Source: an uncultured Candidatus Saccharibacteria bacterium
GTDB lineage: Bacteria; Patescibacteriota; Minisyncoccia; UBA6257; GWB1-50-10
Length of the DNA: 53,157 nucleotides
NCBI GenBank assembly: GCA_964466475.1
Contig: CAYXNB010000002.1
Location: 1 to 53,157 of the forward strand
Direction: 5' to 3'
Notes under the pieces: generated by a model
What the model was told of the DNA's origin: nothing
The model's input: the letters and a program-made list of their open reading frames with translations, nothing else
Databases searched by the model: none
In this document: positions 3,263 to 45,917 of the stretch, piece after piece
How the letters are laid out: every line of letters starts with the position of its first letter
Position numbering within the stretch: position 1 is the first letter of the stretch
Translations under genes and position numbers: made by a program

Positions 3263-5236
3263 ATGTCATTCAATCCGGAAGTTCACATGTTCCAAATCCC
3301 GGAAGAAAACACGCGAGCAAAATCGGCAGAACTCGCGGAGAATCTGATGGAATTAAGCGCGGAAATAAGCGCGTGCGTACCGAAGAACGTGGAGATATTT
3401 ACATCGCCGGAATCAAAAACCCGACAAGATCTCTATTATGAAATATCTGCCGCCTGCACGGCCCAAGAGCAAGGCGGAGAAATCCCTGAAAAAACCTTAA
3501 ACCAGATTGCGGCCGACATGACAATATTCCTTGGTGAACATCCATTCAATAAAAGAATCGTATTCTATTACCCGGCGCACCTGATGCCGGATTGCGGAAA
3601 AGAACAAAGACAAAAAAATCCGGAACGCGAAACATTCGCGAAAACTTACGCCGAAAAATGGAAAGAACTCGTCATGGGAGAAAGCGCCGAAGAATCCATG
3701 GAGGCGCTGGAACAAATATCCGCGCTTCTTGAAAAAAATATCGTTACGCCGAATGAGGTGGAAGAAATAATCAGAAATCCGGCGGTCGCGCGAAACGCGA
3801 TGTGCGTGCCGGAATGCGTTACTTCAAAAATTTTTGACAGACAAACCTTTCCGCTAAATGAGTGGAAAAACGCGGTTGAGTCGGCCGCGTCCCGTTTTGA
3901 GGCGCAGCAATACCTGCAAATCTTACCAACCCTCATGGAATACGGGATAGCGGACGCGGATTCGTGGGAAAAAGCAATTCACAACGAAAAAACTCATATC
4001 CGGACAGAAGCCGCGCTGATTGTTCCGCGAATGATAGAAAAAGGAAAAATACGATTTTCAACGGAAGAGTGGAGAGATCTCGCAAGAAATTCCTCGCTAA
4101 GCGTTCGAGAGGCCGCCTTTTCCATATTATCCGACCTGCTCCGTCTTGGGGCAATAACAAAAGAAACTCTGCCCATCGAAGAAATACGAAAAGCCGCGGC
4201 CGGGAAAGACACGGCTCTGCAGGAACACATTATAGATTCTTTTCCGGAATTGATGGAAATGGGCATGATATCAATCGGACAATGGAAAAATCTGCTAAAA
4301 AACCCGAAAAAAGAAATTAGAGAAAAAGCAATAAGTATCCTGCCAGAATTGACGGGTAAAAATCTTCTGACAAAAGAAAATTTTCAAACACCGGAATGGA
4401 TCGCCCTTCTTACAGACAACGAGGAAGACGTCCGAAGAAAAGCGGCAAAAATGATAGGAGCGCTTCTGGACGCGGGTATAATAGAAAATACCGACACATA
4501 CCGGCAACTCCTCCAAAGCACCGACAAGGCAACTCGTTCGGGAGCGATAGAAATCCTGTCCGCGCAAATACGCAAGGGCAGAATAACGCCAAAAGAAATC
4601 ACCGAGCTTACCATGCAAATACCGAACCTTACGCTCCCGCGGGGATTCACGGAAAACCCTGACCTGAAAGAAGTGGTAATGGATGTAAAAATGTTACGAA
4701 AAGCGATTCAAAAAATCGCGCAAAAACACCCAAAAATGCTGCCGGGGTTCCTTCTTCTTGGATCAGCGGCAAAAGGCTACAGCGTTCCGTCGTCCGACCT
4801 GGATATCGCCATAATAATTCAAAAAGATATTTCTTTTGAGGAGCAGGAGGAGATACAAAACGCGATTATACAAGCGGGATTAGAGATGAATGTGATTATA
4901 GACGGATATCACACAATCCCTGTGTCTGATTTTGAACAACCCCGCCTCGCGTCAATGCTTCCGGAAGAAGAGATAGCGACACTCATGATAGGAGAAGTAG
5001 TCGGATCCGATGCGATGGTAAAAGTCCGAGATGCGATTATCAAGGACTTCCAAGAAAAAACGACGGAAAAAGAAGAAACAAATGTCTTGCGAACTATGGA
5101 AACGCACCTGCTTCGCTGGAATATCGCCGAGGAAGCGATGCAACGGGCATATACAAGAGAAAAACCTTACGACAAAAAAGATCCGCAATATAAAGAAGTC
5201 GCGACGCTCGCCTTCCTTACGAAACTGGTTTTATAA
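3263..5236 (+). CDS. HEAT-like repeat protein with C-terminal minimal nucleotidyltransferase (pol-beta superfamily) domain
   Basis: Repeated xxVRxxAaxiLxxLxxxG units (SVREAAFSILSDLL, EIREKAISILPEL, DVRRKAAKMIGALL, ATRSGAIEILSAQI), then LLLGSAAKGYSVPSSDLDIAIII, a GS...DxD nucleotidyltransferase motif. Confidence 0.7.
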   Translation: MSFNPEVHMFQIPEENTRAKSAELAENLMELSAEISACVPKNVEIFTSPESKTRQDLYYEISAACTAQEQGGEIPEKTLNQIAADMTIFLGEHPFNKRIVFYYPAHLMPDCGKEQRQKNPERETFAKTYAEKWKELVMGESAEESMEALEQISALLEKNIVTPNEVEEIIRNPAVARNAMCVPECVTSKIFDRQTFPLNEWKNAVESAASRFEAQQYLQILPTLMEYGIADADSWEKAIHNEKTHIRTEAALIVPRMIEKGKIRFSTEEWRDLARNSSLSVREAAFSILSDLLRLGAITKETLPIEEIRKAAAGKDTALQEHIIDSFPELMEMGMISIGQWKNLLKNPKKEIREKAISILPELTGKNLLTKENFQTPEWIALLTDNEEDVRRKAAKMIGALLDAGIIENTDTYRQLLQSTDKATRSGAIEILSAQIRKGRITPKEITELTMQIPNLTLPRGFTENPDLKEVVMDVKMLRKAIQKIAQKHPKMLPGFLLLGSAAKGYSVPSSDLDIAIIIQKDISFEEQEEIQNAIIQAGLEMNVIIDGYHTIPVSDFEQPRLASMLPEEEIATLMIGEVVGSDAMVKVRDAIIKDFQEKTTEKEETNVLRTMETHLLRWNIAEEAMQRAYTREKPYDKKDPQYKEVATLAFLTKLVL

Positions 5237-41641: not shown

Positions 41642-41693
41642 AAACAGAAACACAACAAAACCACCCGCCGTTCGCTAGGGTGGTTTTGTTGTG
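41642..41693 (-). terminator. Strong 16-bp hairpin terminator downstream of tRNA-Pro and its trailing element
   Basis: cacaacaaaaccaccc (11-nt loop) gggtggttttgttgtg, followed by tttctgttt on the minus strand. Confidence 0.7.
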
Positions 41694-41695
41694 TT

Positions 41696-41908
41696 TTCAG
41701 TCGGGCCGCCGGGAATTTCACTACTCGTCCCTCGCCTTCGCTCGGGACTGCGCTTAAGAAACCCTCGGTTTCTTACGTCGTCCGCCTATCGGCGAACTCC
41801 TATTTTCCGACACGGAGGGAATCAAAGATGCGGGGCATCTTTGATTGGTGGGTCCCCCTCCGACCCACCCCAGTTCAATTCCCGTCGTCCCTCCTTCACT
41901 TCGTTCAG
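41696..41908 (-). mobile_element. Family-C hairpin-rich insertion (about 186 nt plus a 22-bp duplicated tRNA 3' end) directly after tRNA-Pro
   Basis: The 22-mer ttcagtcgggccgccgggaatt occurs at 41696-41717 and 41904-41925. The interior holds at least 5 perfect hairpins. Confidence 0.6.
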
Positions 41909-41979
41909 TCGGGCCGCCGGGAATTGAACCCGGTCTACACGAACCCGAATCGTGCGTACTACCGGCATACTCCGGCCCG
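41909..41979 (-). tRNA. tRNA-Pro (anticodon CGG)
   Basis: Cloverleaf: acceptor cgggccg/cggcccg (C1-G72, A73), anticodon arm cacga-ttCGGgt-tcgtg, T arm ccggg-ttcaatt-cccgg. No CCA is encoded. Confidence 0.8.
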
Positions 41980-41983
41980 AATT

Positions 41984-43486
41984 TCAAACTTTATGCTTCC
42001 TCTTCATCTCCTCCTCTGCCCCCATCTCCTCTTTCGCCACCTTCTCCTTCCCCCGCCTTGCCAATTCCTGCAGCTCCTTGTCCGTCAACTTCCCTAATTC
42101 TTTAATCCTTAATCCTAAATCCTTAACCTTGTTTCGCGCCGGTTCCTCCAAAACCTCATCCATAAGCGCGGACAATATCCATCCTACCTTGGGCGAAGGC
42201 GGAATATCAAGAATCTTCATAATATCATCCCCATTGACCGCAAGCATTTTAGGCGATATAGGGTCCCTCCGCACCTTGTCTATCATAAACAAAAGATGTC
42301 GGATTTTATACGGCTTCGCCTTTGGCACTCCGGACCCGATCCTATCCGCTTCCCGAATTTTCATAAGGTCATCAAGGTGCTCCACCCCAACACGCGCGAG
42401 AAATCTGCGCACCCCGGCGGGCGAAACCTCCCCAACGTTGTAAAAAAACATATGATACCGAACCAAATGAGTTGCCTTTTCTACAACATCGTTTGAAAAG
42501 CGCATTCGTTCAAGCGCCTTCCTCGCCATCCGCGCGCCGATAATCTCATGCCCGTAAAACGTGGAGCGCTTGCCTTCCCCGCGCTTAGAGCGCGGCTTCC
42601 CCACGTCGTGCAAGAACGCGCCAAGCCGGATTTCCAAACCATACCCCTTGCCCGCCGCGTAATCCAAAGCCCGAAGATTATGCTCCCACACGTCATAAAT
42701 ATGGTGCAGATTCTGCCCGCACCCGATCCCTTCCCGAAGTTCCGGAATAATATACTTTAAAAGCCCCAAATCCTCGAGCATCTGCACGCCCCGGGCCGCA
42801 TCTTTGGACATCACGAGTTTTATAAATTCATCGCGAACACGCTCCAAAGCAATATCTTTCAACCCTCCGGAAAACTTTACTATTGCCGCCGCGGTTTCCT
42901 CCTCAATCTCAAACCCCAATTCTGTGGCAAGCCGCACCGCCCGCATGAGCCGCAGAGCGTCTTCGGAAAATCTTTCCTCCGGCCTCCCGACTGCCCGGAT
43001 AATTTTTTTCTTCAAATCACTTTGCCCGCAAAAGATATCAATAATTTTAAATTTTACGTCGTTGTTTTGCGTTTTTCGCTTTTCGCTTTGCACTTCAATC
43101 GCCATCGCGTTTACCGTAAAATCACGACGGCTCAAATCCTCCTCGATTGTTTTCGCGAACCTCACCTCGTCCGGATGCCGCTTGTCCGTGTACTTCCCCT
43201 CCTCCCGAAACGTCGTAACCTCGACAATGTCGGAGTTGTTATTTTGCGCTTTTCGCTTTTCGCTCTGCACTTTCACTCCCACCGTTCCAAATTGATTCTC
43301 ATACACCGAATCAGGAAAAATCTTCAAAATCTGCTCCGGCAAAGCGTTTGTCGCGATGTCCCAGTCCTTGGGCTCCCGTCCGATCAAAATATCCCGCACG
43401 CACCCGCCGACCAAATACGCCTCAAATCCGCCCTCTTGCAAAGTGCTTCCTACGCGTAAAATCTCTTGCGGAACATTGAGTTTCAT
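41984..43486 (-). CDS. cca: CCA-adding tRNA nucleotidyltransferase with HD domain
   Basis: YLVGGCVRDILIGREPKDWDIAT, RRDFTVNAMA and an HD domain (HDVGKP). Confidence 0.9.
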   Translation of the reverse strand: MKLNVPQEILRVGSTLQEGGFEAYLVGGCVRDILIGREPKDWDIATNALPEQILKIFPDSVYENQFGTVGVKVQSEKRKAQNNNSDIVEVTTFREEGKYTDKRHPDEVRFAKTIEEDLSRRDFTVNAMAIEVQSEKRKTQNNDVKFKIIDIFCGQSDLKKKIIRAVGRPEERFSEDALRLMRAVRLATELGFEIEEETAAAIVKFSGGLKDIALERVRDEFIKLVMSKDAARGVQMLEDLGLLKYIIPELREGIGCGQNLHHIYDVWEHNLRALDYAAGKGYGLEIRLGAFLHDVGKPRSKRGEGKRSTFYGHEIIGARMARKALERMRFSNDVVEKATHLVRYHMFFYNVGEVSPAGVRRFLARVGVEHLDDLMKIREADRIGSGVPKAKPYKIRHLLFMIDKVRRDPISPKMLAVNGDDIMKILDIPPSPKVGWILSALMDEVLEEPARNKVKDLGLRIKELGKLTDKELQELARRGKEKVAKEEMGAEEEMKRKHKV

Positions 43487-43610: not shown

Positions 43611-43643
43611 ACTAAAACCCCCGCCATGGCGGGGGTTTTAGTT
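43611..43643. terminator. Bidirectional hairpin after tRNA-Arg and the convergent 759-aa gene
   Basis: actaaaacccccgc catg gcgggggttttagt. Confidence 0.7.
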
Positions 43644-45917
43644 GGATCCTAAAAGAAAGAATGCGTTGCGTACTGCGCGAAGCAGATTACCTCCCTGCTG
43701 AACTCCGCCATCGCTTGGGAGCGGAGGAGGCGGAGGCGGAGGAAATCCTCCTCCCCCGTCAGGCGGCAAGGGCGGAGGAGAAAACGTGCCTCCTTCTGGC
43801 GGACGAAAACCTCCGAATTCCCCACCCGGAGACGGCGCCTGAAATCCGCCCTGCGGAACAAATCCTCCCTGAAAACTCCCTTCCGGAGGTCGAAATTCTC
43901 CTCCCTGAGGCGGATGAAACCCTTCGGGCAACTGCGGAAATTCTCCTTGTGGCGGCAATCCTCCGGGCCCGAAACTCTGCCCCTCGAATCCCTGTCCGCC
44001 GACAGGCAGGACGCTCCGAATCTGTCCCTCTATCTGCCCGCGAATCTGGCCTTCCACCTGTCGACGAATGTCTCCCTCAATTCGGGACGTATCAAATCCC
44101 CGCTCCGCATCTCCTTCACGAATTGTTTCCCTGAATCTTGCAGGATCAAAATTCGGTTCTGAAAACGCCTCATTAAATTGCGAAGGGTCAAACCCGCGGC
44201 TCTCCAGTTCTTTCTTTAACTGTTCGCGTAAAATAGGATCCTGCGGATTCGGCACTCCTCTGTCCTGTCCGAAAAAGGGCGTAGCGCGATTTTCCGGACG
44301 AAACTGACTCGGATCCGGACGAAACGGAGGCCGAACACCCTCAGGCAAATTTCCTTCAGGTCCATGAGGAAATTCGCCCTCTCCTCCCTGAGGAGGGAAC
44401 CCGCCCCCCGGACCCTGTCCCTGCGGACGGAAATTCCGGAAACACTCGTCAATTATTTCATGAGGATCAAACCCGCCCCCCTGATTTTGCAGAAAAGTGG
44501 CGACATCTCCTCCGGTCTTGGAATTCAAACAGGTCGCGATCTCCGGCGGAGCGCTCCGCAAAAATCTCTGCATCTCCTCTATGCCTCTCGCGCCGCCCCC
44601 GTCATCCTCCCCAAAGCCGCCCTGAAATCCCCCTTGAAAACGCGCCTGCTCTCCGCAAACACGGAACACATCTCCCGTCTGCGGAGTAAATTGAAGATCT
44701 CCATTCTGTAATTTTTCAAAATCATCTCCCAATTTTTCCCGCGCGCACGAAGCAATCTCCGGCGGCACGCGCTGGAATATCTCGCGGGGATCGGGACCGG
44801 ATCCGTGCTTTTCAAAACATTCCCGCACCCGCTCGCCGATCTGCGGCCCCGGCGAAAGCCGTCCCGCCTGAATGTCCGCGATAATATTTTCCCCGAGCCG
44901 CGCCTTCAGGCACTGCGCCACCTCCGGCGGAGCAAATTCAAGCCCCTGTTTTAATTGAGTAAAACCCTCCTTCGCCCGTTTCAATTCTTCCGGACGGATA
45001 AGGTTATGCTTTTCCGCGAAAGCGAAACACTCCTCTTGATGAGAGGGGTCATTACAATACGCACGGCACTCCCGCTCGCCCCTGCACCCTCCGGGACCCC
45101 CTTCGCGCATCACCTGCCGCGCCATCTGCACCTCCTCGGGTTTCATAAAACCCGCCTTTTCGGCAAAAGCGATGCACTCGTCCGCGTTGTCCGGATTATT
45201 GCAAAACCGGTCACACTCACCCTTGGATTTGCATCCTCCGGGGGTCTCGCCGCTTGCCATAAGTTCCTGGATTTTCGAAAACTGCTCCTCATTCTGCGGT
45301 CCGTGCTCACCCTCTCCCTCATCTAAAAATCCCGCTTCTTTTGCAAATCGGAAACATTCCTTCGCGTGACTGAAATCGCCGCAATATTTCTCGCACGATT
45401 CTTTACTCGTACATCCTCCGGGCATTTGCCCGCCGCGACGCAAATAATCCCGGATCTTCCGCGCCTCCTGAAGGTCTTCGTCGTTTCCGTGCACACCCTC
45501 ATCCTCCGCGAATTGCAAACAGGTTTCAATATTCGCGACATTCTCGCAAAACGCCTCGCATTCCTTAGGAGTCCTGCATCCGCCGGGACCTCCGCGCTCC
45601 TGCAATGCGCCGCCAAACTTCCGGGCGCGCTCCGCCTCCGCTTTGTTCATGAGCCCGTTCTTCTCCGCGAACACAACGCACTCCGTAAGGTGCGCCGGAT
45701 CATCGCAATACCTCTTGCACTCCGTTTTATCGCGACAACCCCCGAGTTCCGCCACAGGAAAGGCGATTCCGCTCGCCTCAATTTTTTCCTCGCTTGGCGC
45801 CCGCGGAACATTTTGTGCCTGAGCCCCCGGAACAACTAAAAACGCGACCACAAAAAAGACTGCCGTAAAAGCAAAAAGAAAAAGTAAATATTCAAAACGC
45901 AATGTTTGTGCGCGCAT
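43638..45917 (-). CDS. Secreted protein with five 4-Cys repeat domains, three 2-Cys PPE(I/V)A repeats and a G/P/Q/F-rich low-complexity tail
   Basis: Signal/TM N-terminus. Repeats are of the form GGC(x3-4)C(x2)[YF]C(x7-8)EC(x2)FAEK; the tail is GGFQ/PPQGGEF-rich with a PPPPPPP run. Confidence 0.7.
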   Translation of the reverse strand: MRAQTLRFEYLLFLFAFTAVFFVVAFLVVPGAQAQNVPRAPSEEKIEASGIAFPVAELGGCRDKTECKRYCDDPAHLTECVVFAEKNGLMNKAEAERARKFGGALQERGGPGGCRTPKECEAFCENVANIETCLQFAEDEGVHGNDEDLQEARKIRDYLRRGGQMPGGCTSKESCEKYCGDFSHAKECFRFAKEAGFLDEGEGEHGPQNEEQFSKIQELMASGETPGGCKSKGECDRFCNNPDNADECIAFAEKAGFMKPEEVQMARQVMREGGPGGCRGERECRAYCNDPSHQEECFAFAEKHNLIRPEELKRAKEGFTQLKQGLEFAPPEVAQCLKARLGENIIADIQAGRLSPGPQIGERVRECFEKHGSGPDPREIFQRVPPEIASCAREKLGDDFEKLQNGDLQFTPQTGDVFRVCGEQARFQGGFQGGFGEDDGGGARGIEEMQRFLRSAPPEIATCLNSKTGGDVATFLQNQGGGFDPHEIIDECFRNFRPQGQGPGGGFPPQGGEGEFPHGPEGNLPEGVRPPFRPDPSQFRPENRATPFFGQDRGVPNPQDPILREQLKKELESRGFDPSQFNEAFSEPNFDPARFRETIREGDAERGFDTSRIEGDIRRQVEGQIRGQIEGQIRSVLPVGGQGFEGQSFGPGGLPPQGEFPQLPEGFHPPQGGEFRPPEGSFQGGFVPQGGFQAPSPGGEFGGFRPPEGGTFSPPPLPPDGGGGFPPPPPPPLPSDGGVQQGGNLLRAVRNAFFLLGSN

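Follow-up and report, generated by a model that had tools for sequence, protein, structure and literature searches.

A 186-nt insert behind a Saccharibacteria tRNA-Pro gene belongs to an apparently undescribed family of protein-less, probably mobile structured elements of the Patescibacteria

The 186-nt insert that follows the tRNA-Pro(CGG) gene in the window, the whole 53,157-nt stretch of Candidatus Saccharibacteria DNA analysed here, is one copy of a widespread family of protein-less structured mobile elements of the CPR/Patescibacteria, and the family is apparently undescribed so far. We favour, with some reserve, the explanation that its members are small mobile elements without open reading frames (ORFs) that insert at the termini of conserved genes; each is probably a non-autonomous, nucleic-acid-guided integrative micro-element. 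With comparable reserve, we assign the minus strand of 41696-41903 to this family as one 208-nt unit.

The element sits between the tRNA-Pro gene and its terminator, upstream of ddl (Table 1). The stop codon of the CCA-adding enzyme gene precedes the tRNA gene by 4 nt, and the tRNA gene encodes no CCA according to ARAGORN and Rfam; CorA and RNR are the other neighbour genes. The 22-mer TTCAGTCGGGCCGCCGGGAATT (plus strand) has exactly two occurrences in the window, while shuffles of the window give 0.01 expected by chance: one is part of the functional tRNA (copy 1), the other is an orphan (copy 2), which bears out the exact duplication of the tRNA 3' end noticed in the first-pass annotation. 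The repeat comprises the final 18 nt of the 72-nt ARAGORN call with 4 trailer nt, or 17 nt with 5 trailer nt when counted on the 71-nt Rfam match. The terminator that had been placed straight after the second copy is also present, as a 19-bp perfect hairpin that adjoins copy 2 and leads into a T-rich run; it is likely a bidirectional terminator of the tRNA/element transcript, and the ddl start codon (ATG, 41622) lies 25 nt beyond it. A promoter scan around the element returned no sigma-70-like promoter. In an independent Logan assembly of the source run, an 11-kb contig reproduces 41300-41937 with 0 differences, which rules out an assembly artefact as the origin of the insert. Among the Logan contigs of this run (X1) only the filled allele was assembled, with no excised or circular form and no empty-site junction.

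Table 1. Coordinates of the tRNA-Pro(CGG) locus and of the parts of the element unit in the window.
Feature	Position	Strand	Remarks
tRNA-Pro(CGG), target gene	41908-41979	(-)	ARAGORN and Rfam
Repeat copy 1	41904-41925	(-)	T-loop 3' part, T-stem 3' strand, acceptor 3' strand, trailer TGAA
Leader/spacer CGAAGTGAAGGA	41892-41903	(-)	
Anti segment GGGACGACGGGAATTGAAC	41873-41891	(-)	Complementary to T-loop, T-stem 3' strand and acceptor 3' strand
Junction J1/2 TGGGGTGGGT	41863-41872	(-)	Family comparison
Conserved helix P2	41813-41862	(-)	CGGAGGG 41856-41862 pairs with CCCTCCG 41813-41819
Junction J2/3	41775-41812	(-)	Conserved TGTCGGAAAA at start
Conserved helix P3, AAGAAACC-GAG-GGTTTCTT	41756-41774	(-)	Carries family-invariant AACCG
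J3/4, variable helix P4 and 3'-terminal motif	41718-41755	(-)	
Repeat copy 2	41696-41717	(-)	Orphan copy of tRNA 3' end and TGAA
19-bp perfect hairpin, T-rich arms	41648-41696	(.)	Adjoins copy 2, then T-rich run

The insert is without ORF, in agreement with the first reading of the sequence, and all the hairpins listed there can be found in it. Its proposed closing helix has to be given up: GGAGGG at 41888-41893, then paired with CCCTCC, falls at the boundary between the leader and the target-complementary segment, and the family comparison pairs CCCTCCG with the CGGAGGG of helix P2 instead. The hairpin formed by GGTGGGTC and GACCCACC is a local fold that competes with P2. The loop of P2 holds a lineage-specific 36-nt insertion including the 12-bp hairpin (41820-41846), and J2/3 has an extra hairpin, CGCC-GATA-GGCG (41783-41794). 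J1/2 contains GGGT, with which the family-invariant GGGTCGG begins; the remaining CGG of this motif opens the 5' strand of P2. Helix P4 reads GTCCC-GAGCGAAGGCGA-GGGAC, with a recurrent GAGCGAAGCGA-type motif in its loop.

Throughout the family, a unit is made of four parts, in this order: a leader, which often carries a terminator; an anti segment, which is target-specific and differs among copies; a conserved multi-hairpin core; and a duplicated gene end, which copies the terminal 12-94 nt of the target. The core consists of GGGGUCGG, helix P2, CCGUGGAGGAA, helix P3 with AACCG and variable P4 hairpins that bear GAGCGAAGCGA-type loops; its conserved length is only about 90 nt. Around one locus in related Patescibacteria, 19 of 214 tRNA genes (about 9%) have a copy of their own last 16 nt downstream (at most 2 mismatches, within 600 nt), against a chance expectation that we estimate at about 0.03; tRNA-Pro examples in relatives are L040, L053, L022 and L035. 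A scan of metagenomes with the conserved-core pattern, which biases the sample to canonical cores, yielded at least 120 further loci. The further copies that the first-pass annotation had proposed to look for are therefore plentiful, well over 120 elsewhere, while BLAST and the covariance model found no second copy inside the window. The covariance-model search that it had also suggested gave 100 matches in 692 kb with our family model R1, while Rfam 15, curated and permissive (E up to 10), let only the tRNA pass threshold in the window region and returned no relevant family on canonical members. A 13-bit Rfam match to 'tmRNA_permuted' was discarded, as it covers only the T-arm. Besides the canonical core there are other core types, namely those of the second unit at L107 and of L035, L053 and L068. 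Full-text literature searches turned up no description of the family; what they yielded was general background on the fragments of tRNA genes that integration leaves behind.

The targets comprise 28 tRNA anticodons, tmRNA next to smpB, the 3' ends of protein genes encoding the C-termini of GyrB, GAPDH (gap), L18 (rplR) and an MraY-like protein, and the N-terminal ends of EF-G (fusA), TypA and GH57 genes; the N-terminus of L11 (rplK) was read from the L176 sequence, with L11 among the neighbour ORFs. The element always lies on the same side of copy 1. It has the orientation of the tRNA at every associated tRNA; at the fusA, typA and rplK 5' ends it lies antisense to the gene. Empty sites, which had been named as a check, exist in relatives: at L084 the tRNA-Pro gene abuts the ddl start codon, and most of 56 related tRNA-Pro loci are without the element. 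In metagenomes of groundwater, sediment and soil, core sequences reach high copy numbers. An identical 60-nt core occurs at a tRNA-Asn gene (L093) and at an mraY-like gene (L134), and in one groundwater run 28 contigs with differing flanks pile on this core.

This arrangement has much in common with the site-specific integrative elements found at tRNA and tmRNA genes and with their non-autonomous, att-flanked derivatives, CIME-type elements and satellites. All of them use the 3' part of a tRNA or tmRNA gene, or a conserved protein-gene end, as target, supply a replacement gene end, leave an orphan fragment at the far side and accrete in tandem; here tandem units are found at L052, L035 and L107. 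The target gene stays intact since its end is present twice, and direct repeats of the target, in the manner of attL and attR, flank the element in the window as well as in the family. The att-like signature of the first-pass annotation thus stands in its logic, and so does its miniature non-autonomous integrative element, for which the missing ORF, the gene-end duplication, the empty sites and the other copies speak; their restriction to the tRNA T-loop does not, as the same core is also found at protein-gene termini and tmRNA. The duplication from the T-loop to past the 3' end is the classical tRNA att signature (PMC9897764), and islands also show tandem sites, as would be expected if the insert were the remnant of an integrase-mediated prophage or genomic island at the T-loop that was nearly all deleted. 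We reject such a decayed island as highly improbable, because the units keep a constant size of about 183 nt, their core is conserved and shows covariation, and an integrase is not linked to them. More than 120 units of the same small size, located at many unrelated targets, are homologues of the insert, and random deletion remnants would not share a common core. The linked integrase genes that had been suggested as a check did not turn up: none of the genes next to the window element encodes an integrase or a reverse transcriptase (RT), and among 150 ORFs neighbouring family members (at least 120 loci) neither these proteins nor transposases or other mobile-element proteins are enriched. Scans of viral contigs gave no related match; the single match, L082, has no tRNA and a fold z of -0.3, and is probably due to chance. 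Unlike known integrative elements, moreover, the units measure about 180 nt rather than kilobases, contain a target-complementary segment, and rely on one conserved core for dozens of unrelated targets, a range beyond the reach of a sequence-specific integrase.

GGGTCGG and AACCG are invariant in the family alignment A2, and helices P1-P3 covary: 88.7% of the cells are paired versus 70.8% in shuffles, and changes on both sides affect 435 cells versus 125 in shuffles, these pair counts being inflated by the fitting of alignment A4 to the model. When the partners are slid by 1-3 columns, paired cells fall to 33-61%. This covariation shows that the element folds as a single strand. The insert folds at -83.8 kcal/mol in the tRNA sense (z -5.9 versus shuffles) and at -68.5 kcal/mol on the other strand (z -5.3).

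A host-beneficial structured non-coding RNA, immobile, co-transcribed with the tRNA and either released by processing or acting on the tRNA 3' end, would fit this strong fold and its covariation, the signal in RNA libraries (see below) and the orientation that matches every associated tRNA. We nevertheless hold it to be very unlikely. The distribution is patchy, given the empty sites described above, a terminator separates the gene from the core in many copies, the repeats bear the signature of foreign alleles, and the core behaves as a high-copy repeat. Moreover, the same core is found in antisense orientation at the fusA, typA and rplK 5' ends, and the release of a structured RNA by tRNA processing, put forward earlier for this insert, therefore cannot be general.

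Folded single-stranded recombination sites are known from integron attC and from the attP hairpin of CTX phage, and IMEX use the host XerCD. Our elements are like these in that no recombinase of their own is needed (IMEX), structure is conserved over sequence, an internal stem mimics the duplex target, and tandem arrays occur. They differ in that attC and CTX attP serve one fixed target (attI or dif), while here there are many, matched by the element's own sequence. The family also carries gene-end cargo, and the single-strand folding shown by its covariation may be that of RNA or of DNA.

The match to the target lies in the anti segment. The inverted copy of the T-arm seen in the window at first reading is real and is a hallmark of the family, namely a stretch that can base-pair with the target on both sides of the junction; for this reason the role then ascribed to it, pairing with the tRNA in a co-transcript, is not supported by the family comparison. 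The 19-nt segment of the window is 89% complementary to 41911-41929, and its exact complementarity reaches 12 nt with copy 1 and only 8 nt with copy 2; the 12-nt duplex begins 4 nt left of the repeat boundary. The same holds for the family, in which the anti segment matches the intact target more closely than it does the orphan and mostly extends over the left repeat boundary: exact complementarity has a median of 11 nt with the gene copy, 7 nt with the orphan copy and 4.8 nt in controls, 44 cases favour the gene copy and 3 the orphan, and the duplex starts 3-9 nt left of the repeat in 30 of 51 cases. The register of the anti segment on its target, relative to the repeat boundary, goes from -9 to +20, and is looser than in known guide systems.

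Guides of this sort are used by mobile RNAs: the IGS of group I introns (P1/P10), the EBS/IBS pairs of group II introns and the bridge or seek RNA of the IS110 family. Their likeness to the family is a short internal segment that is complementary to both sides of the junction and varies with the target. The family guide differs in being a single unbroken run of 11-20 nt whose register varies, and none of these systems makes long gene-end duplications as the family does. With group I introns the resemblance, an internal guide pairing with both junction sides, is one of logic only. Neither a group I nor a group II core was recognised by Rfam, no Intron_gpI match and hence no P3-P9 catalytic core being found on the elements; the junctions read as examples have Watson-Crick pairs rather than the U.G wobble of the group I 5' splice site, and the copies at protein-gene 5' ends are antisense instead of sense in the transcript. 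The IS110 bridge RNA lies at the end of an insertion sequence with a DEDD recombinase, has two bipartite guide loops and goes with a duplicated 2-nt core. Here the guide is single and continuous, the repeats measure 12-94 nt, and no DEDD or serine recombinase was found among the ORFs next to family members.

A simple repeat search detects a repeat in no more than about half of the copies. Among the repeats, many are 100% identical, for instance at L134, L205 and L119; in others the left end is perfectly identical although the remainder has diverged. The diverged repeats include those at gap, fusA and rplR. In protein genes, differences between the two copies fall on codon positions 1, 2 and 3 in the ratio 30:16:78 (equal site numbers), and stop codons are kept. 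This prevalence of third-position changes in diverged duplicates marks one copy as a foreign allele: the differing copies behave as two functional alleles, one of them from another lineage. The orphan copies at L008 and L010 are identical to tRNA-Pro alleles of other lineages. In an acceptor-stem test of differing copies, pairing with the resident 5' strand is poorer for copy 2 at 7 loci and better at 1, a result that fits decay or foreign origin of copy 2 alike. Moreover, unit length is constrained and repeat length is not: units have a median of 183 nt, unit and repeat length are uncorrelated (rho 0.08), and the non-repeat part is anticorrelated with repeat length (rho -0.42, p 0.001).

These properties bear on a transposon-like MITE, in which staggered cuts would produce a long, variable target-site duplication whose copies are identical at birth and diverge in place. 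The fully identical repeats, the resemblance of the anti segment and copy 2 to terminal inverted repeats and the constant side of copy 1 on which the element lies agree with such a scheme, in which a new anti segment alone would suffice for retargeting. We regard it as distinctly unlikely. Target-site duplication with later drift is disfavoured by the codon-position spectrum, the third-position share being 63% versus about 44% expected by our estimate if the orphan drifted neutrally (chi-square about 20). Against it also stand the identical left end of otherwise diverged repeats, the orphan copies that match the alleles of other lineages, the fact that the unit and not the insert is of constrained length, with repeats of 12-94 nt, and the lack of a linked transposase or casposase.

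In general terms, the elements share with MITEs, REPINs and casposons that they are small, non-coding, hairpin-rich and multi-copy, with terminal inverted complementarity, flanking direct repeats and a similar choice of targets (tRNA 3' ends and translation GTPase genes). MITEs have common terminal inverted repeats and a fixed, short target-site duplication; in our family the inverted 'terminal repeat' comes from the target and varies among copies, the direct repeats vary in length and can be diverged alleles, and no autonomous partner was found. Casposons have a Cas1 casposase, terminal inverted repeats and a 14-15-bp target-site duplication, and insert at tRNA-Pro and EF-2 genes; the repeats of the family are variable and allelic, and its members have no linked protein.

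Transcripts could also be involved. Four metatranscriptome runs have contigs with core sequences, which reach depths of about 80-90, and one 163-nt core contig is common to two of the runs; these contigs do not indicate a direction, and the RNA libraries may contain carried-over DNA. Such signals would fit a SINE-like retro-element, in which the unit is transcribed, the core recruits an RT encoded elsewhere, and the cDNA enters the homologous gene end via target-primed synthesis or recombination. This would be a mechanistic sub-variant of the favoured explanation rather than a different kind of thing. The constrained unit length and the tandem units agree with this variant, and the covarying structure and a modest excess of G-U in P2 are in keeping with RNA; the G-U to A-C counts are 24:9 in P2, 53:35 in P1 and 25:33 in P3, the overall asymmetry being weak and compatible with RNA or ssDNA and with either strand. 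On the other side, no RT, such as would adjoin a retron, was found at the window element or near any of the at least 120 loci. Furthermore, the repeats include trailer nucleotides, sometimes the terminator, and lack CCA, so that they were copied from the gene and not from the mature tRNA; a retro-copy of mature tRNA was rejected on these grounds. On balance we judge the retro-element variant unlikely.

For the favoured guided integrative micro-element, we envisage that a unit-length intermediate with its own gene-end copy would recombine with the chromosomal gene at a site set by base pairing between anti segment and target. The intermediate may be circular and enter by a Campbell-type crossover, or it may be linear and single-stranded, its homologous tail invading the strand; the conserved core would be a scaffold or catalyst recognised by a trans-acting, probably widely conserved enzyme. 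If so, small CPR/Patescibacteria genomes would be populated by an unnoticed class of selfish micro-elements, which move without encoding protein, apparently choose their targets by base pairing and protect essential targets with a spare gene end. They would be a new kind of mobile DNA or RNA through which lineages could exchange gene-end alleles, would explain orphan tRNA and gene fragments as well as assembly breaks in CPR genomes, and may represent a compact principle of guide-directed DNA insertion.

A bolder reading, which we offer only tentatively, is that the unit is a programmable nucleic-acid-guided integration device without a protein gene of its own, composed of a 5' guide, a core and a 3' spare gene end. 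The 5' segment would base-pair with the target over the future junction, the core of about 90 nt could be a small catalytic RNA or DNA or a scaffold for a universal housekeeping enzyme, and the 3' tail would repair the entered gene, so that a new guide and tail might retarget the device to any conserved gene terminus. It would then represent a new class of mobile element, and might offer a new way of directing DNA insertion by a guide. Read most conservatively, the family is still a new and widespread structured nucleic-acid family missing from Rfam.

Finally, some stretches of the window unit outside the conserved helices recur at other loci. The 40 nt that lead from the tRNA 3' end through the leader to the start of the anti segment are 95% identical with the same stretch at L035, and the 3'-terminal motif GAGTAGTGA is common to the window unit, L138 and L173.

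On the minus strand of the window, the gene for the CCA-adding enzyme is followed after 4 nt by tRNA-Pro(CGG), the insert, copy 2, a terminator, ddl and corA. The repeated 22-mer, comprising the 3' part of the T-loop, the 3' strands of the T-stem and acceptor stem and the trailer TGAA, is present exactly twice in the window, with 0.01 occurrences expected from window shuffles. This exact repeat bears out the first-pass annotation, which had described a duplicated tRNA 3' end around a hairpin-rich insert without protein gene: all the hairpins it listed were located in the insert, the 186 nt separating the repeat copies contain no credible ORF, and a 19-bp perfect hairpin with T-rich arms adjoins copy 2 where a terminator had been proposed, the ddl start codon lying 25 nt further. 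The insert folds at -83.8 kcal/mol in the tRNA sense (z -5.9 vs shuffles) and at -68.5 kcal/mol in antisense (z -5.3), and was recovered with 0 differences in an independent assembly of the source run, a subsurface metagenome.

Features of the window and parts of its unit
Feature	Position	Strand	Remark
16S rRNA 5' part	1-583	minus	
Copy 2	41696-41717		window unit
J3/4 with P4 and GAGTAGTGA motif	41718-41755		window unit
P3	41756-41774		window unit
J2/3	41775-41812		window unit; private CGCC/GGCG hairpin
P2	41813-41862		window unit; private 36-nt loop insertion with a 12-bp hairpin within
J1/2	41863-41872		window unit
Anti segment	41873-41891		window unit
Leader	41892-41903		window unit
Copy 1 of the 22-mer	41904-41925		
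tRNA-Pro(CGG)	41908-41979	minus	CCA not encoded
CCA-adding enzyme gene	41984-43486	minus	
759-aa ORF	43638-45917	minus	between tRNA-Arg and tRNA-Lys; no Pfam match

The order tRNA-Lys/Arg, CCA enzyme, tRNA-Pro, kept across many Patescibacteria, was found in 80 related loci of species-representative genomes, often with tRNA-Ala(CGC) next after tRNA-Pro(CGG); relatives of the CCA enzyme are at most 76% identical and come from Patescibacteria (Wolfe-, Jorgensen- and Paceibacteria-type MAGs). A comparison of relatives for empty sites had been proposed, and indeed the insert is absent from most related tRNA-Pro loci, including L084 (CCA enzyme 67% identical), where tRNA-Pro directly adjoins the ddl start codon. 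Copies of the tRNA-Pro 3' end lie 45-350 nt downstream in L040, L053, L022, L035 (twice), L008 and L010. When all tRNAs of the related loci were searched with their last 16 nt (up to 2 mismatches, within 600 nt downstream), 19 of the 214 genes (Ala, Arg, Gly, Lys, Pro) had a copy of their own 3' end, against about 0.03 expected by chance in our estimate. The inserts of relatives share one fold, in which a 5' segment pairs with the 3' gene-end copy to form a long closing helix that encloses 2-4 hairpins. Upstream of tRNA-Pro in the closest relative (L083, 4245-4335), a GTCCCGCC-AA-GGCGGGAC hairpin resembles the P4 hairpins of the family; it may represent part of a unit in inverted orientation.

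Alignment of seven inserts that follow tRNAs for Pro, Arg, Ala and Lys revealed invariant GGGTCGG and AACCG motifs and compensatory pairs (RNAalifold). The wider search used R1, a covariance model, and a degenerate pattern matching five of the known copies. The pattern returned at least 120 metagenome loci, a sampling of the family biased by the pattern itself, and R1 detected 100 copies across 692 kb, frequently with several on a contig; Rfam holds no matching family. The consensus, in element sense, runs from the anti segment through gaaaGGGGUCGG, P2, CCGUggaGGAAa, P3 (..AACCG nnn GGUU..) and P4 with GAGCGAAGCGA-type loops to the gene-end copy. In the alignment of R1 copies, paired cells amount to 88.7%, against 70.8% in shuffles and 33-61% with partners slid, and both-side changes to 435 cells against 125 in shuffles, numbers that lean towards structure because the alignment is model-fitted. 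For the comparison of RNA with single-stranded DNA, the counts of G-U against A-C were 24:9 in P2, 53:35 in P1 and 25:33 in P3. The window unit shares about 80% identity with its best family matches over 60-90 nt, and its 86.7 bits against R1 are partly by construction, since it was among the seven training sequences; judged by its sequence, it is a diverged member. Several other units (the second unit of L107, L035, L053, L022, L063, L081 and L070) have the same layout of target-complementary segment, hairpins and gene-end copy with cores unrelated to GGGTCGG, suggesting that several core types make up a superfamily.

From repeat start to repeat start, units have a median length of 183 nt (5-95%: 158-253; 208 nt in the window) and may occur in tandem. 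Repeat length (12-94 nt) is uncorrelated with unit length (rho 0.08) and inversely correlated with the length of the remainder (rho -0.42, p 0.001): the longer the repeat, the shorter the other parts, and total size is therefore constrained. This constant size, together with the core common to the units, makes it scarcely credible that they are decayed integrase islands. The search for a linked integrase came out negative: the 150 ORFs neighbouring family members are housekeeping genes, with no enrichment of integrase, transposase or RT, and the viral contigs scanned held no family copy.

Among the matches listed, about 45% of copies lie behind a tRNA, always in sense and with the tRNA 3' end repeated behind them; at least 28 anticodons are represented. 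One copy targets tmRNA, with smpB adjacent; others target the 3' ends of gyrB, gap, rplR and an mraY-like gene, or, with the element antisense, the 5' ends of fusA, typA, rplK and a GH57 gene. Thus, of the earlier proposal of an att-like site in the tRNA T-loop, the duplication of the tRNA end stands and the restriction to tRNAs does not. The layout is in every case gene body, copy 1, leader, anti segment, core, copy 2 and flank. The repeats contain trailer nucleotides, sometimes an entire terminator, so that the gene and not the mature RNA is the template. A purely cellular non-coding RNA is very improbable in view of the patchy occurrence, the antisense copies and the terminators between gene and core.

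The inverted T-arm copy noticed in the first-pass annotation is present and complementary to its tRNA target over 12 nt exactly, from -4 to +8 (family register -9 to +20). Across the family, exact complementarity of the anti segment has a median of 11 nt to the gene copy, 7 nt to the orphan copy and 4.8 nt to controls, the gene copy matching better in 44 cases and worse in 3. In 30 of 51 cases, moreover, pairing begins 3-9 nt to the left of the repeat, where the sequence is unique to the intact gene. It follows that the anti segment fits the intact target on both sides of the junction, and given this complementarity the inverted copy is a guide-like segment.

The repeats themselves carry an allele signature. 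In 12 differing coding repeats, differences fall 30:16:78 on codon positions 1:2:3 with equal site numbers, and stop codons stay in place. The third-position share is 63%, against about 44% that we estimate for neutral drift of the orphan copy following target-site duplication (our chi-square about 20). Furthermore, the orphan copies at tRNA-Pro in L008 and L010 equal alleles of other lineages, and the left end of the repeat is identical even where the remainder has diverged. One repeat copy is thus, on sequence grounds, a foreign allele, and this signature speaks against a transposon with a long target-site duplication, which we consider decidedly unlikely.

We propose that a unit-length intermediate with its own gene-end copy would recombine with the chromosomal gene at the point of anti-segment pairing, duplicating the gene end and leaving the gene intact. 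The intermediate could be a circle, with a Campbell-type crossover importing copy 1, or a linear single strand whose homologous tail would invade the gene and import copy 2, the anti segment holding the displaced strand; both geometries fit the data, including acceptor-stem compatibility, by which copy 2 pairs worse in 7 loci and better in 1. A SINE-like retro-route, as a sub-variant of this explanation, seems unlikely. The conserved, covarying core with its invariant unpaired nucleotides would most simply be a scaffold or catalyst for a trans-acting, broadly conserved activity.

Att-flanked integrative elements carry a replacement gene end and leave an orphan fragment behind (PMC9897764), as this element would do. 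Its complementarity across the junction resembles that of group I/II intron guides and IS110 bridge RNAs, and its conserved structure without own recombinase resembles attC and CTX-type sites. Tested against the defining features of these classes, the element falls outside the integrative elements, the introns and the IS110 RNAs, and probably outside the attC and CTX-type sites. The full-text literature searched, which covers part of the journals, contains no description of the family.

An identical 60-nt core occurs at tRNA-Asn (L093) and at the mraY-like 3' end (L134), unrelated targets from different samples. In one groundwater run, 28 contigs with differing flanks pile on this core, where depth is about 380, whereas it stays below 20 in the flanking sequence. 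The core acts like a high-copy repeat of the whole community, and identical cores at different targets may reflect core exchange among elements. In sequencing runs X23 and X24, assemblies break at the same core into dozens of differently flanked contigs. Core sequences are present in contigs of four metatranscriptome runs (X28, X50, X52, X53; L134:3398-3470) at depths up to about 80-90, DNA carry-over being possible, and the same 163-nt core contig was found in two marine-sediment metatranscriptome libraries.

Further observations concern the window and other loci. Encoded CCA is absent from all three window tRNAs. The 16S rRNA 5' part is 583 nt long and spans model positions 1-405 only, which implies an insertion of about 180 nt; 16S gene insertions are common in CPR bacteria. 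In L022 (about 4770-4980, 200-400 nt past tRNA-Pro), a complete tRNA-Ala(CGC) is apparently nested within a split second tRNA-Ala-like gene and flanked by an inverted repeat, ACCCGCCCACCAT / ATGGTGGGCGGG (13 and 12 nt). A different mini-module lies behind tRNA-Lys (2748-2821, minus) and tRNA-Ala (4539-4610, plus) of L068: a partial second T-arm, its T-loop split after TTC by a 31-nt two-hairpin insert (..CCACCC-GTWR-GGGTGG), then a tRNA 3'-end copy. Behind tRNA-Gly of L002 (2449-2521, minus) are two exact 74-nt tandem units, each ending in the tRNA 3' end. These AT-rich units have no hairpin core, and duplication of 3' ends may therefore have a second route. Finally, L098 contains a group I intron (476-739, plus; Rfam, 82.7 bits) about 120 nt from a family member (861-990, minus).
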